A stretch of DNA of 63,776 nt, counting the filler, from Methanobacteriota archaeon (GTDB lineage Archaea > JACRDV01), in NCBI GenBank assembly GCA_024860865.1. It is 7 parts of 7 records of this genome, joined end to end, with 100 filler letters (N's around TTAATTAATTAA, not from the genome) between each part and the next. Parts side by side here need not be neighbours in the genome. Positions count along the whole stretch, not along the records: positions 42,481 to 51,856 come from JACRDV010000159.1; 6 more parts are not named here. One strand, given 5' to 3'. A model generated the notes under the pieces. The model searched no databases. It was not told the DNA's origin and worked only from the letters and a program-made list of their open reading frames with translations. A program made the translations under genes and the position numbers. Shown in pieces: positions 35,351 to 46,277 of the stretch (position 1 is its first letter; each line of letters begins with the position of its first letter).

Positions 35351-35857
35351 TTACTTGAGAAGTTCTTCAATTGATCCAGTAAGCTCGCTTTCGCTTATAG
35401 CCCCTGTATACCTTCGAGCAATTTTTCCATCTTTTGTAATAAAGAAAGTGGTTGGGATACCGGTAACTTCATAGTCTCTCGCGATCTTTCCATCCCTATC
35501 ATAGCCATTTAGGAAAGTAATATCAAATTCTTGAATAAAAGCCCTTGCGTTAGCCTCGCTATCTGCAATATTTATTCCAATAAAAATGACTCCTTTTTCT
35601 TTGTATATTCTGTAGACTTTTTCAAGAGTAGGTGCTTCAAAACGGCAAGGGCCGCACCAAGAAGCCCAAAAATTTAGTACAACTGGTTTACCTCTAAACT
35701 CTTTGAGCGTGAGTTCTTTACCATCGAATAATTTTAAGGTAAATAGTGGAGCATCAGATAGAGAAGTTTTCTTAGTATATTTATCAATAGCATATACAGC
35801 AAACACCAAAAGTAAAAATATGGTGGCTGAAATCAGTACTATTTTCTTGGTTTGCAA
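35351..35857 (-). CDS. TlpA/ResA-like thiol-disulfide oxidoreductase
   Basis: [12 protein letters not shown] and GIPTTFFI motifs; N-terminal TM anchor. Confidence 0.9.
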
Positions 35858-38493: not shown

Positions 38494-40270
38494 ATGGTCG
38501 AAACGAAAAAATTTGAAAATAGTGAAAATAATTCACAACCCATAACTGATTTCACATTAACTCGTAGAGATTTTATTAAACTCTCTGCTTTTGCGGCAGG
38601 AAGTATAGTTGCTGCTAACTCTTTGGTTACAAGGGCTCAAGCCCAGCAATTAACTCCAGAGGAAGTTTACGAGCTTTCTAAACCAGAGAACATATTGTAC
38701 TCTAGTTGCCTGCAGTGTAACACAGGTTGTCCGATTAAAGTAAAAATCCTAGATGGTGTTGTTGCGAAGATAGACGGAAATCCTTTGAGCCCATGGAATA
38801 GATTCCCGCACATGAAGTATACTACGCCTATAAAAGATTTAGCTACTATTGATGCAGGACTTTGTCCAAAGGGCCAGTCTGGAATACAAACATATTATGA
38901 TCCTTATAGAATACGTAAGGTTCTGAAGCGCGCCGGCAAGAGAGGTGAGAATAAGTGGGTATCCATTCCCTTTGAGCAAGCTATTGAAGAAATAGTAATG
39001 GGCGGTTTACTTTTTAAAAATGTTCCCGGCGAGGAGAATCGCTACGTAGAAGGGCTCAAAGACGTAATTGTTTTGCGCGACCCAAAGGTTTCGAAGGAAA
39101 TGAAATCAGAAATCGATAACATCTGGCATGAAAAGGATGCTGCTAAAAAGAAGGAGTTAGTCAATGCTTTTAAAGAGAAGTTCAGGTACGAACTTGGCAA
39201 GTTAATAGACCCAGAGCATCCGGACTTAGGGCCAAAGAATAATCAGTTTGTATTTATGTGGGGCAGGATGAAGGGAGGACGTAGTGATATTGTTAAAAGA
39301 TTTGTTGCTGGTGCTTGCGGTTCTTACAACTATCATGGTCACACAACAGTGTGCCAAGGTTCTCTCTACTTCACAGGTAAGGCCATGAGCGAACAGTATC
39401 TGTACGATGCTGGGGAAAAGAAGTACAAATGGACTGGAGGCGATAAGTTCTATTTCCAAGCGGATGAGGGTAATGCAGAATTCATAATATTTGTCGGTGC
39501 TGGCTTGTTTGAAGGTAACTATGGGCCTACTAATAGAGCAATGAAAATAATGGAGGGCGTAGAGTCAGGTCGCTTAAAGTTTGCGATTTTAGACCCAAGA
39601 TTTTCTAAACTGGCTGCAAAGGCTTGGAAGTGGATTTCGACTAAGGTTGGAACAGATGCTGCTTTTGCTTATGGGATGATAAGGTGGATTTTAGAGAACA
39701 AAAAGTATGATGAGAATTACTTGAAAAATGCTAACAAAAAGGCAGCTGCAGATGCTAAAGAACCTACTTTTACAAACGCTGTTTGGCTAGTTAAAATAAA
39801 AGATGGAAAACCAGAGAAGTTCCTATATGGATCAGAAATTGGGCTTTCAAAAATAAAGAAAAAGGAAGGTACCGAAGAAGTGGAAATGGATCCATCAGTA
39901 GTTTTGAAAGATGGAAGTCCAGTAGCTGTTGATCCATATGATGAGGTTACAGGAGTCACTGGTGACCTATTTGTGGACACAGAGGTAGGAGGCATTAAAG
40001 TAAAGAGCGCTCTTCAGCTTGTCAAAGAGGAAGCTTTTAAGCGAAGTATAAAAGAGTGGGCAGAGCTTTGCGGTGCAAAGGAAGAAGACATAATAGAGTT
40101 AGCCAGAGAATTTACCAACCACGGGAAAAAAGCAGCAGTTGATGTTCATAGAGGAGTATCACAACATACGAACGGCTTTTATAATGTAGGTTCTTGGTTC
40201 CTCTTAAACCTCCTGATAGGTAACTACAGCTGGCTAGGGGGAGTTGTACAGCTCACAACGTATAGTGGTG
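38494..40270 (+). CDS. Tat-exported molybdopterin oxidoreductase, tetrathionate reductase A-like (truncated by contig end)
   Basis: TRRDFIKL Tat motif, CLQCNTGC..CPKG Fe-S motif, LKRAGKRGENKW and HTTVCQ. Confidence 0.85.
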
Positions 40271-40370
40271 NNNNNNNNNNNNNNNNNNNNNNNNNNNNNN
40301 NNNNNNNNNNNNNNTTAATTAATTAANNNNNNNNNNNNNNNNNNNNNNNNNNNNNNNNNNNNNNNNNNNN

Positions 40371-42374: not shown

Positions 42375-42480
42375 CCATAGNNNNNNNNNNNNNNNNNNNN
42401 NNNNNNNNNNNNNNNNNNNNNNNNTTAATTAATTAANNNNNNNNNNNNNNNNNNNNNNNNNNNNNNNNNNNNNNNNNNNN

Positions 42481-42615
42481 CAAATACTTAAAGTTATCGG
42501 AGACTACCCCCCATCTAAAGAAAATATTCATGCACGCGTAACATCAGACGGCCATGAAGTGTTAGATGTTATCAATGAAAGGGATAGCTTCAGAATTTTC
42601 ATAAAAAAGAAATGA
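42481..42615 (+). CDS. TusA/SirA-family sulfur (selenium) carrier, C-terminal part
   Basis: Hand translation QILKVIGDYPPSKENIHARVTSDGHEVLDVINERDSFRIFIKKK*; directly upstream of selD. Confidence 0.7.
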   Translation, partial: QILKVIGDYPPSKENIHARVTSDGHEVLDVINERDSFRIFIKKK

Positions 42616-42636
42616 ATAAATTTTAGGAGGGATTTA

Positions 42637-43662
42637 GTGGGAGACAAGCTTAGATTGACACAGATGGTAGCTTTACATGGATGAGCTTGTAAAGTAAGGG
42701 AAAGAGAGCTAGACAAGTTGCTCAGCGGTGCAGGTATAATAGTTCCAGAAATGGGCAAAATTTTACTCGGACCAGGTGATGATGCAGGGGCAATAAAGAT
42801 TACAGAAGACCTTGCTTACGTTACACACCTCGATTTCTTCACTCCAATTATAGATGATCCTTATCTCTTTGGTAAAATAGCTGTTTGCAATGCTATGAGC
42901 GATATCTTTGCAAAAGGTGCAGTAGAGAACCTTGGAATCTTGATAATAATGGGCTTTCCAATTAAAGTTCCTATAGAAATAATGCAACAAGCATTAAAAG
43001 GAATTCAGGATTTTTGTTCAGAAGTTAATGCTGCAATCTTAGGCGGCCATACAATAATTAACCCCTGGCCAATTGTTGGAGCTGCAGTCGTAGGTACAAT
43101 AAATCCTAGCAAAATAATCAAAAATTCTACCGCAAAACCCGGTGATGCTTTGATTTTAACTAAACCTCTTGGAACTCAACCAGCGATGGCTGCACATAGA
43201 GCGATTGGAACTGATGCCGAAAAGGAAATAACAGCTATACTATCAAAAGCAGAAATTGAAAAAATGATTAATGCTGCAGTCGAAATTATGATAACCTCAA
43301 ACAAAGCTGCTGCTGAAGCAATTATAGAAATTGGGGCTAGTGCAGCAACGGATATAACTGGATTTGGAATTCTAGGACATGGCGGCGAGATGGCAAAACG
43401 GAGCAAAGTTGACATTGAGATCCATACTCTTCCAGTAATAAAAGGAACGCTTCAAATATCGAAACTCTTTGGTTATGGTTTAAAAGAAGGAAGATCTGCA
43501 GAGACTTCAGGTGGACTCTTAATTTCAGTTTCAAAATTAAAAAAAGAAGAACTTATTCAACAACTAAAAAAGCAAAATATTCCAGCATTTGAAATTGGCC
43601 AAGTTAAAAGTGGAATTGGAAAAATCTCTTTACAAAAGGATCTTAGTATAATTGAAATCTAA
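42637..43662 (+). CDS. selD: Selenophosphate synthetase, itself a selenoprotein (UGA-Sec at codon 16)
   Basis: AGGAGG SD and GTG start. MGDKLRLTQMVALHG-U-ACK with TGA at 42682-42684 is in frame with the DDAG, DFFTP, GGHT, TDITGFG and ETSGGLL motifs. Confidence 0.95.
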
Positions 43663-43663
43663 T

Positions 43664-43711
43664 GGTCAATGAAAAACTAGTAAACCTTTTAGGAACTAGT
43701 TTTGAGTTACT
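43664..43711 (+). promoter_or_regulatory. Eukaryote-type SECIS element in the selD 3' UTR
   Basis: AUGA (43669-72), stem AAAACUAGU, unpaired AAA, mini-stem CCU-UUU-AGG, stem ACUAGUUUU, then GA (43704-05). Confidence 0.85.
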
Positions 43712-43877
43712 GCTGCAAAGCAGACCACTAATAAAAATTTTGGTATATAAAATATAACGTAAAGAGTATAAATGCGAGTATAAATCCTTTAGAGAAAAAT
43801 TTTATAGAGCTAAGAATGAAACTAAACTTTATTTAAAAACAAAATACCTTGTGACTTTAATGAAGTTAGAAGGAAAG

Positions 43878-43999
43878 TGGCGGCGGCCACGGGGATTTTC
43901 GAGTTAGCACTTATCGAACCCCAAGCCCTACTGGGCTTACCGAATCTCTCCTAGAGATCTGAAGTTCGGTGTGAAGCACCAGCTACACTGATAGCCACC
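43878..43999 (-). tRNA. selC: tRNA-Sec(UCA) with two BHB introns (43946-43958 at 37/38; 43896-43912 at 59/60)
   Basis: 9-bp acceptor, 4-bp T stem, 7-bp D stem, 6-bp anticodon stem, long variable arm, UCA at 43960-43962, G73 and encoded CCA; mature length 92 nt. Confidence 0.92.
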
Positions 44000-44149
44000 A
44001 CTTTAAGTTTTGTTTTTATGAAATGAAAGATAACTTTTTAGATAATATGTTCTCAACTATTTATTTTAAATTTCCTAAGCCAATTTAGGGGGTAGAATCG
44101 ATAAACTTTACAGAATTCTTCGATAAAGTCCAGAAAACCAGTTTCTATA

Positions 44150-44730
44150 GAAAAATGCCCATTGATTTTCTTAAATTTTGTCGGACCTAGACCTAAACCT
44201 AACATGTCTGCTCTAGGATGTACGCTGCTGTCCTAGAGCTTTAACAATCGAGCTAGCTAAAAAAACAAAATTGTTATAGGGATAGATCATTCTGAAGATA
44301 TAATAAAGAGAGCTAAGGAAATGCAATTTCAGCTAAGATGTTATAACGTAGTATCTAGAGCGGGAGATGCCGAGAATATTCCTTTTCAGATGGAAGTTTT
44401 GACTTGGTAATAGCAACCTCTGTGCTGTATCTCTTACTAGATCCTCTAAAAGGGCTAAAGAGATGATCAGAGTGGCAAAGTTTGGAGGTAGAGTAGCAAC
44501 TCCTCACCTTTCGGATAAGATAAATGGGGAGAATGTTGAAAGGTACAGCGAGCACTATGCGCTAAAAGGTTTTGAACTCGAGGCTATCTATGGGTTGGGT
44601 GCGGCAGAATCCAATCACAGATTCTAAGATTGTCCTTGGAAGAGTTGCATGGAAAATGTGAGCTATTAAACATTGAACTTTTTAAAACGATGGATGGGGG
44701 GCGCTCTTCTCTAAGGGGGAAAATGAAAAA
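44150..44730 (+). pseudogene. Decayed class I SAM methyltransferase
   Basis: Fragments GIDHSEDII, GDAENIPF, SFDLVIATSVL and EMIRVAKFGGRVA in different frames; boundaries approximate. Confidence 0.65.
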
Positions 44731-44895: not shown

Positions 44896-45387
44896 GTGCT
44901 CTCTTTGAAGCTAAATCCGAAATTCAAGGATGAAATCACAAAGATTCACGGTGGCGAGAAAATAAAGCTTTGCTATCAATGCGGTACTTGTTCTGGCAGT
45001 TGCCCAATTACTTTCATAACCAAAGCTTATAACCCTAGGGGATTCATCCAAATGGCTTTGCTAGGTTTAAAAGAAGAAGTTCTTACTAACAAAAATATTT
45101 GGTTATGCACCGGTTGCTACTCGTGCTACGAGCGATGTCCACAAGGAGTTGAGCCAGCCTATGTTATTAGGGTTCTCTGCAGTTTAGCCGCAAAAACTGG
45201 TAATATCCCAGCAGCGACTAAAGCTGGCGCACAAACGATCCTTAAGCAAGGGCTTCTTGCTCAAGTGACTGATTTTGTTCAAAAGCAACGCGAGAAACTT
45301 GGTTTGTCAAGGATCGGCCAAACTGGTGTTGAGGAAGTACAAAAAATTGCAAAAAAAACTGGCTTTGACAAATTGGTTGGGTTATAG
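44896..45387 (+). CDS. hdrC: Heterodisulfide reductase subunit C
   Basis: CYQCGTCSGSCP and CTGCYSCYERCPQGV motifs. Confidence 0.92.
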   Translation: MLSLKLNPKFKDEITKIHGGEKIKLCYQCGTCSGSCPITFITKAYNPRGFIQMALLGLKEEVLTNKNIWLCTGCYSCYERCPQGVEPAYVIRVLCSLAAKTGNIPAATKAGAQTILKQGLLAQVTDFVQKQREKLGLSRIGQTGVEEVQKIAKKTGFDKLVGL

Positions 45388-45395
45388 GTGACTTA

Positions 45396-46277
45396 ATGGC
45401 CCTAGACTACGCTCTTTTTTTAGGTTGTGTAATCCCAACTAGAGAGTTTGGATTGGAAGTTTCAGCTAAAAAAGTTCTTGAAGCATTTGATGTAAAGTTT
45501 CATGAAATGATTGGTGCAGGTTGCTGTGGAACTGCCGGTCCAATTGCTGCAGTTGATTTTTTAACAATGGCTGCTATTGCAGCTAGAAACATATGTATCG
45601 CAGAAGAAATGGGCATGGATATAATTACATTTTGTACTGGTTGTGCAGGAACTCTTGGAAAATATAACAAACTTTTAAAAGAAGATGAACATCTCAGAGA
45701 GCAAGTAAATGAAATTTTAAAAGACATTAACAAAGAGTTTAAAGGAAAGATAGAAGTTAAACACTCTCTTGATGTTTTGGTAAATGATATTGGATTAGAT
45801 AAAATAAAAAATTCCATTAAAAAGAAATTCAATGGATTAAATGTTGCTGCCCATATAGGTTGTCATGCTGTTAGACCAAGTGATATTCGGAAATTTGATT
45901 CACCCGAGCGCCCGATTCTCTTTGATCAATTGATAGAATTAACAGGTGCAAAGAGCATCAACTTCCTTGGGAAAAACCTTTGTTGCGGTGCGGGTTTAAT
46001 AGGTGTTGCAGATGACTATTCACTAGCATTAGTGCGGGAAAAATTAATTAAAGTTAAAGCAGCTGGAGCAGATTGTATGTGCACGATTTGTGCGGCTTGT
46101 CATCTCCAGTATGAAATGAGCCAACTTTCATTAAAAACAAAGTTTAAGGAAGATTATAATATTCCGGTTTTACATTATTACCAGCTACTTGGTCTTTCAA
46201 TGGGCGTGAAGCCTGAGGAGATAGCTCTTCAAACCGTAAAGATTAAAGCCGATAATGTATTAGCAAAACTGAAATAG
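45396..46277 (+). CDS. hdrB: Heterodisulfide reductase subunit B
   Basis: Two CCG domains (GC..GCCG..CTGC; HIGCH..CCGA..CAAC). Confidence 0.92.
   Translation: MALDYALFLGCVIPTREFGLEVSAKKVLEAFDVKFHEMIGAGCCGTAGPIAAVDFLTMAAIAARNICIAEEMGMDIITFCTGCAGTLGKYNKLLKEDEHLREQVNEILKDINKEFKGKIEVKHSLDVLVNDIGLDKIKNSIKKKFNGLNVAAHIGCHAVRPSDIRKFDSPERPILFDQLIELTGAKSINFLGKNLCCGAGLIGVADDYSLALVREKLIKVKAAGADCMCTICAACHLQYEMSQLSLKTKFKEDYNIPVLHYYQLLGLSMGVKPEEIALQTVKIKADNVLAKLK

Follow-up and report, generated by a model that had tools for sequence, protein, structure and literature searches.

The selenocysteine tRNA (tRNA-Sec) gene of Lokiarchaeota, as characterized by Mariotti et al. (2016, PMC4989117), adopts a 9/4 fold with G73; its D arm has 7 bp and closes on a loop of 4 nt, and its T-loop contains an intron of 31 nt. 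In the tRNA-Sec sections of accounts from 2017 and 2022, it was the only intron-containing archaeal tRNA-Sec gene known (PMC5330540; PMC9499178). D stems of 6 bp are given for Sifarchaeia and Methanopyrus in the corresponding passages of these three papers (PMC4989117, PMC5330540, PMC9499178). tRNAs with several introns are well known in Thermoproteales, Atabeyarchaeia, and Freyarchaeia, as set out in the tRNA section of Valentin-Alvarado et al. (2024, PMC11291895). We analyzed a tRNA-Sec gene found in a 63,776-nt stretch of archaeal DNA from assembly GCA_024860865.1 (the window, consisting of seven parts joined end to end). Judging from its sequence, we estimate a probability of about 85% that it belongs to an uncultured archaeon of low G+C, works as a tRNA-Sec gene, and contains two introns of the archaeal, protein-spliced kind. 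A preliminary description had proposed this identity and both introns, and it is supported by a match to Rfam model RF01852, an ARAGORN call, the cloverleaf of the spliced form, and a strict bulge-helix-bulge (BHB) fold at the T-loop intron.

The gene (table 1) was expected to escape standard finders, and it does: ARAGORN reports no tRNA gene anywhere in the window, and Rfam at gathering cut-offs gives no match in it. With permissive thresholds, in a search of 901 bases, RF01852 aligns to 43999..43882 (model positions 1-91, 35.5 bits, E 3.6e-5). The alignment contains two insertions, one in the anticodon loop (15 nt vs. 2 in the model) and one in the T-loop (18 nt vs. 1). At these positions RF01852 outranks the other models of its clan, including the general tRNA model RF00005, and RF00005, not RF01852, wins at the ordinary intron-bearing tRNAs of other loci. 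The gene is richer in G+C than the window (55% vs. 36%). The minimum free energy (MFE) of the precursor is -50.6 kcal/mol (z -4.13, none of 200 shuffles equal), and this structure contains the acceptor, D, variable, and T helices together with the BHB of the T arm, with a one-pair register shift.

Once the 13-nt intron 1 and the 17-nt intron 2 are removed in silico by script, an 89-nt tRNA followed by an encoded CCA is obtained, which ARAGORN identifies as tRNA-SeC(UCA). The tRNA-SeC(tca) call appears only when both segments have been removed; with intron 2 alone removed and relaxed settings, ARAGORN reports the same 13-nt intron. Among the 31 designed pairs of the spliced tRNA, 30 are standard, and without constraints its MFE (-43.8 kcal/mol, z -3.9) corresponds to the 9/4 cloverleaf. 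The acceptor stem consists of nine pairs, six Watson-Crick and three G.U, followed by a CA linker. With the four G-C pairs of the T stem, it forms a 13-bp acceptor/T domain arranged as 9/4 without any non-standard pair. The anticodon stem has 6 bp (ACCGAA/UUCGGU), and excision leaves a 7-nt anticodon loop, CUUCAG plus A, in which U33 is present. The variable arm of 16 nt forms a stem of 5-6 bp closed by the 4-nt loop AGUA. The restored 7-nt T-loop, UUCGAUU, is identical to that of three intron-free relatives, and G73 directly precedes the encoded CCA. The 9/4 fold, the UCA anticodon, and G73 announced in the preliminary description are therefore all present in the spliced form. Its 7-bp D stem stands in part: there are seven positions, closed by a 4-nt loop, six of which form standard pairs and one a U.U mismatch. 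Rfam aligns this stem as 6 bp with one inserted base per side.

Both introns were found as predicted, at 37/38 and 59/60, with their helices and bulges. On the minus strand, the anticodon arm reads ACCGAA, CUUC, AGA, UCUCUA, GGAG, AGA, UUCGGU. The central helix of intron 1, CUUC/GGAG, has 4 bp including one U.G pair, and the 3' AGA forms a 3-nt bulge beside the 6-bp anticodon stem. The junctions are AG|A at both ends, and a cut after the second base of each AGA excises 13 nt. Intron 1 is predicted to be a relaxed splicing substrate, a designation we use because its cutting-competent form is not the MFE. The T arm reads GGGG, UUCG, AUA, AGU, GCUA, ACU, CGAA, AAU, CCCC. It presents an outer helix GGGG/CCCC, a 4-bp central helix UUCG/CGAA with the bulges AUA and AAU, and a 3-bp inner helix AGU/ACU closed by the loop GCUA; cuts at AU|A and AA|U excise 17 nt. 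The pair probabilities of the central helix are 0.83-0.96. According to this folding model, intron 2 is a strict BHB substrate.

Table 1. Coordinates of the tRNA-Sec gene, its parts, and the neighboring features in the window
Feature	Position	Strand	Description
tRNA-Sec precursor gene	43999..43878	minus	122 nt; RF01852 match and ARAGORN call after in silico splicing
tRNA-Sec landmarks	G73 43881; encoded CCA 43880..43878; anticodon UCA 43962..43960	minus	
Exon 1	43959..43999	minus	41 nt: 9-nt acceptor 5' strand, CA linker, D arm, anticodon stem 5' strand, loop 32-37
Exon 1 D arm letters		minus	GUGUAGC / UGGU / GCUUCAC; from segment table and pair check, spliced form
Intron 1	43958..43946	minus	13 nt, site 37/38, predicted relaxed bulge-helix motif
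Exon 2	43913..43945	minus	33 nt: position 38, anticodon stem 3' strand, variable arm, T stem GGGG, T-loop 54-59
Intron 2	43912..43896	minus	17 nt, site 59/60, predicted strict hBHBh' motif
Exon 3	43878..43895	minus	18 nt: T-loop position 60, T stem CCCC, 9-nt acceptor 3' strand, G73, CCA
Block common to run X2	43875..44004		130 nt; 3 differing letters, 0 gaps, 2,971-nt contig
selD (selenophosphate synthetase)	42637..43662	plus	GTG start behind AGGAGG; Pfam AIRS and AIRS_C
SECIS-like hairpin, selD 3' UTR	43664..43726	plus	MFE -21.8 kcal/mol, z -3.21, 0/200 shuffles equal
TusA-like gene, 3' part	42481..42615	plus	Pfam PF01206, E 8.3e-8; 5' part in N stretch

The specificity of these assignments was assessed by scanning both strands of the window for BHB motifs that combine an outer helix of 4 bp with four central pairs and enclose introns 11-40 nt long. 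Strict motifs, with an inner helix of at least 3 bp, number 121 (0.95 per kb of strand). Within the gene, the scanner recovers both proposed introns and one further hit, and intron 2 is the only one of these hits whose inner helix reaches at least 3 bp. We also ran ARAGORN on 26,244 two-deletion variants, whose deletions cover a grid surrounding the two sites. Any tRNA was called in 176 of them, and the call was tRNA-SeC(tca) in 128 of these 176. All 128 need a first deletion of 13 nt starting at precursor positions 40-46; as AGA is repeated at both junctions of intron 1, some of these starts are equivalent. By base-composition arithmetic, once the loops set the boundaries, four given positions would pair by chance with a probability of about 0.02 in each intron.

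Several observations weigh against a working two-intron gene. In the exons, they are the three G.U pairs of the acceptor stem, the U.U mismatch at the fourth position of the D stem, and a G at position 37, vs. A in six aligned archaeal tRNA-Sec genes. In intron 1, the 5' cut site lies within a 9-nt loop and the inner helix is absent. The BHB form of the isolated arm is not the MFE (-7.0 vs. -8.4 kcal/mol for a rival hairpin); this rival, the 6-bp AUCUCU/AGAGAU, is better by 1.4 kcal/mol and its pairs have probabilities of 0.41-0.62. The score of the unspliced gene lies under the curated RF01852 threshold (35.5 vs. a gathering score of 47 bits), and ordinary tRNAs of 71-86 nt also reach 36-46 bits on this model. 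Relaxed BHB-like motifs are common in the window: 2,017 were observed (15.8 per kb of strand), and 20 block shuffles give 1,683 +/- 45. The text of a recent preprint likewise cautions about relaxed BHB classes (bioRxiv 10.64898/2026.10.13.758758). As such motifs are frequent and ordinary tRNAs attain comparable scores, neither a motif nor a score is evidence by itself. The evidence is the exact restoration of two 7-nt loops within a full tRNA-Sec cloverleaf.

As proposed in the preliminary description, the gene is convergent with selD, whose stop codon lies at 43660-43662, 215 nt separating the 3' ends of the two genes. selD has an in-frame TGA at 42682..42684 (codon 16, Sec16), in the motif HG-U-ACK, at the catalytic position. 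Its 3' untranslated region (UTR) can form a hairpin resembling a selenocysteine insertion sequence (SECIS), in which AUGA (43669-43672) is followed by a 9-bp upper stem without mismatch, an AAA bulge, a 3-bp ministem, and GA (43704-43705); the bulge comprises AAA plus A and the apical loop has 3 nt. The type II eSECIS-like model, as outlined by Huang et al. (2024, PMC11227280), combines the core 5'-GA_[G/A]A-3' with an upper stem of 7-15 bp, a bulge of 4-12 nt, a ministem of 2-8 bp, and an apical loop of 2-6 nt, and such elements are described there for Asgard selD genes. The predicted selD element falls within all these ranges, which agrees with the claim that a SECIS accompanies the Sec-containing selD. 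The selD gene adjacent to the tRNA requires Sec decoding, since a TGA lies in its frame at the catalytic position and a SECIS-like hairpin follows it. No other gene of the Sec machinery was found among the 61 open reading frames of the window scanned with Pfam. A weak Rfam match to RAGATH-12 at 43678..43745 (22 bits, cut-off 75) overlaps the hairpin and was taken as chance.

These features suggest how the tRNA might be produced and used. In the predicted fold of the precursor, the T arm presents a strict BHB, and the anticodon arm can present a relaxed one. If each 3-nt bulge is cut behind its second base, 13 nt at 37/38 and 17 nt at 59/60 are removed; from what is known of archaeal tRNA splicing, EndA would cut the four sites and the RtcB ligase would join the three exons. 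By analogy with the archaeal Sec pathway, SerRS would charge the tRNA with serine, and PSTK and SepSecS would convert the serine to selenocysteine using selenophosphate, which the neighboring SelD may provide. aSelB would then bring the tRNA to UGA codons in mRNAs with a SECIS of the kink-turn type, the selD mRNA probably among them.

The first alternative is a decaying or non-functional tRNA-Sec copy, in which the inserts remain or only one is removed, Sec being decoded by another copy in the genome, for instance an intron-free one. The structure of intron 1, lacking an inner helix and with a BHB form that is not the MFE, is compatible with this, as are G37, the U.U pair of the D stem, and U3.G70, which depart from the relatives. 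This explanation appears improbable to us since excision restores 7-nt loops exactly, all four central pairs are in the cutting register in both inserts, 30 of the 31 exon pairs are kept, and a Sec-dependent selD adjoins. The conservation of the gene in a second population also argues against decay. We compared Logan contigs of four DNA runs over 42600..44400. Run X1 is identical to the window over 43465..44400 and may be its source sample. A contig of run X2 shares with the window only a block (table 1) that spans the gene; neither intron is shortened in it, and three substitutions are the only differences. The homology ends within 3-5 nt of the predicted gene ends, and on both sides of the block the contig is unlike the window. 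As the block is kept without insertions or deletions between unlike flanks, the conserved unit is the gene with both introns.

The surroundings of selD vary between these populations as well. The selD contigs of runs X2, X3, and X6, from two studies, all diverge from the window at 43747 and share one common continuation; the DNA that follows the selD hairpin is therefore different there. These three runs also have one base fewer at 43687, in the apical U run of the SECIS-like hairpin. The homology stops sharply at 43875 and 44004, and the selD contigs depart at 43747, which raises the unlikely scenario of a recombination or integration hot spot. The 130-nt unit would be kept while its flanks are exchanged between populations, and the introns would persist by breaking up a sequence recognized by integrases or other elements that target tRNA genes. 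Introns may protect tRNA genes against the mobile elements that target them. If the tRNA-Sec gene is such a hot spot, it would constitute a natural test of this idea on a single-copy tRNA.

The second alternative is the intermediate state put forward in the preliminary description, in which the co-occurrence, within one lineage, of two introns, a eukaryote-type SECIS, and a D stem of 7 bp would mark a transitional state. To situate this lineage, we compared selD and archaeosine tRNA-guanine transglycosylase (TGT) with their relatives. Among 13 genome and 20 metagenome loci, the nearest selD relatives, at 61% identity, are Ca. Hecatella orcuttiae (Bathyarchaeia) and two metagenome contigs. The best TGT identities are 50-52% among 251 Thermoproteota genomes (top score 579 bits) and 48-50% among 151 Asgard genomes (561 bits). 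On these sequence comparisons, TGT appears about equally distant from the two groups and the lineage, which is poorly sampled, is not placed in Asgard.

tRNA-Sec genes of other archaea differ in their intron content. Intron-free genes were found in Helarchaeota (67.7 bits on RF01852), a Promethearchaeota genome (66.1 bits), and two Bathyarchaeia genomes (62.7 and 67.0 bits). The tRNA-Sec gene of another Bathyarchaeia genome, G107 (L025:1501-1606), has an 18-nt insertion in the T-loop and still reaches 59.3 bits; reading the sequence by eye, we place this intron at 59/60 and see its bulges arranged as in intron 2. A complete Freyarchaeia genome encodes a tRNA-Sec gene (L086, G659:C1:810418-810533) whose D arm contains about 30 inserted nt and which scores 27 bits on RF01852; it is another gene that score thresholds would miss. 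Among the seven genes compared, only the window gene has two introns and only it has one in the anticodon loop. As the others are intron-free or have introns at other sites, intron content varies lineage by lineage. An encoded G73 followed by CCA is read in six of the seven genes (window, L025, L024, L016, L014, and L015); the seventh, Freyarchaeia L086, lacks this reading, the end of its alignment being uncertain. According to the tRNA-Sec passage of a 2022 review, CCA is not encoded in archaeal tRNA-Sec genes (PMC9499178). About 350 nt from the G107 tRNA-Sec lies a second tRNA gene (L025:1950-2063, minus strand; RF00005, 41.6 bits), in which the anticodon region has a long insertion and the variable region is also long.

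Other searches for relatives gave no tRNA-Sec. At E <=0.01, none was found in Borrarchaeum, Jordarchaeia, Sifarchaeum, and one more genome, where five candidates are ordinary tRNAs. None was found either in Ca. Hecatella orcuttiae (G001), where the five candidate places are also ordinary tRNAs. With the precursor as blastn query, 401 Bathyarchaeia genomes yielded three hits (21-31 nt, E >=0.0016), which we treated as noise. No tRNA-Sec gene lies within about 3 kb of selD in the nine genome loci of relatives scanned. The tusA-selD-SECIS/selC cluster of the preliminary description exists in the window, where its members adjoin, but it is not conserved in these nine relatives, and in run X2 the tRNA-Sec gene is on a separate contig from selD.

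The selD 3' UTR hairpin, which fits the type II eSECIS-like model, and the presence of one intron at 37/38, given as the sole intron site of eukaryotic tRNAs in the relevant part of PMC5330540, are in line with the transitional state proposed. We nevertheless consider it very unlikely. The combination of a 7-bp D stem with introns was presented as new, yet the D stem and a T-loop intron together are the published lokiarchaeal state (PMC4989117). The preliminary description had given the lokiarchaeal T-arm intron correctly and the lokiarchaeal D stem as 6 bp, where that study reports 7 bp. Eukaryotic tRNA-Sec, as described in the tRNA-Sec sections of PMC5330540 and PMC9499178, has a D stem of 6 bp, and 37/38 is also the commonest intron site in archaea (PMC11291895). 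The selD and TGT comparisons, which do not place the lineage in Asgard, and the lineage-by-lineage variation of tRNA-Sec introns, which are absent or elsewhere in other genes, also argue against it, as does an AUGA...GA hairpin that follows selD in a Bathyarchaeota genome. As selD of that genome is followed by such a hairpin, this form is no sign of Asgard affinity. That hairpin, downstream of selD in Bathyarchaeota Bin_245 (L011:3940-3980), has an 8-bp stem and an A-rich 11-nt loop, a type I eSECIS-like shape outside Asgard. At the selD locus of Ca. Hecatella orcuttiae (L001), no clear equivalent of the SECIS-like hairpin was seen. All features of the window gene are of archaeal type, and the proposal of an intermediate state is not retained.

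The weakest alternative is a tRNA-Sec-shaped UGA suppressor carrying serine or cysteine, similar to allo-tRNAs, which U3.G70 instead of the PSTK identity pair C3:G70 might evoke and which is extremely unlikely in view of the 9/4 fold, G73, 6-bp anticodon stem, and archaeal D arm, all as in tRNA-Sec, the advantage of RF01852 over RF00005 at the gene, and the Sec at the catalytic site of a selD with a SECIS-like element.

Other genes surround the locus. On the strand opposite to the tRNA gene and upstream of it, 44896..46277 contains HdrC-like (4Fe-4S) and HdrB-like (CCG domain) genes, followed by genes for a glycine-cleavage H protein and two radical-SAM proteins. A Prx-like gene at 35351..35857 was considered as a candidate selenoprotein gene and rejected: it has a CGPC motif and a Sec codon is absent. 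The window contains twelve N runs of 44 nt in six pairs (e.g., 42381-42424 and 42437-42480), which interrupt several genes, among them the TusA-like gene and a molybdopterin oxidoreductase gene (38494..40326).

Surveys of Sec use in archaea rely on tRNA-Sec score cut-offs, and Secmarker cut-offs of 35 or 40 bits figure in the methods of published ones. As this two-intron gene scores 35.5 bits on RF01852 and is invisible to ARAGORN, Sec use may be under-called in intron-rich lineages. The main value of the observation is this warning for threshold-based surveys; it is otherwise modest. In the texts of the literature searched, we found neither a tRNA-Sec with two introns nor an archaeal one with an intron in the anticodon loop, although the per-gene supplement of the 2026 preprint might list some, and the supplementary data of PMC11291895, as far as they cover these genes, gave PSTK rows only and no Sec tRNA entry. 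Within that literature, an anticodon-loop intron in an archaeal tRNA-Sec is new, as is a second intron-bearing lineage beyond Lokiarchaeota. Together with L025 and L086, the window gene shows that tRNA-Sec intron content varies among archaeal lineages. The picture of the evolution of the Sec system is unchanged; the gene extends a known type and is not a step towards eukaryotes.

Compared with the systems described, the window gene shares with the tRNA-Sec of Methanococcales, as presented in the tRNA-Sec sections of PMC5330540 and PMC9499178, a D stem of 7 bp and the 9/4 fold typical of archaea; the Methanococcales genes differ in having no introns and, according to PMC9499178, no encoded CCA. 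The tRNA-Sec genes of Daphnia pulex described by Santesmasses et al. (2017, PMC5330540) have an intron one base 3' of the anticodon, like the window gene, but they belong to a eukaryote and contain only this intron, 25 or 16 nt long; eukaryotic splicing takes its measure from the mature domain. The multi-intron tRNAs of Thermoproteales, Atabeyarchaeia, Freyarchaeia, and Jordarchaeia reported in the main texts of PMC11291895 and bioRxiv 10.64898/2026.10.13.758758 contain, like the window gene, several short BHB introns at canonical and non-canonical sites and are often missed by annotators; a multi-intron tRNA-Sec is not described in the text of either. The single D-arm insertion of about 30 nt in Freyarchaeia L086 is unlike the two introns of the window gene.

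Two more of the nearest counterparts are found in Bathyarchaeia and Lokiarchaeota. The G107 tRNA-Sec shares with the window gene the 59/60 intron (18 vs. 17 nt), the U.U at the fourth position of the D stem, and G73 with an encoded CCA. It differs by the absence of an anticodon-loop intron, a D stem of six positions, A37, and its score (59.3 vs. 35.5 bits). The lokiarchaeal tRNA-Sec, as documented in the tRNA-Sec section of PMC4989117, resembles the window gene in its UCA anticodon, G73, 9/4 fold, long variable arm, and T-loop intron and in a D stem of seven positions closed by 4 nt, and it was likewise found only by a dedicated covariance model. It has one intron of 31 nt, whereas the window gene has two (13 and 17 nt), the extra one in the anticodon loop, and it lies about 6 kb from the EFsec gene, whereas the window gene lies beside selD.

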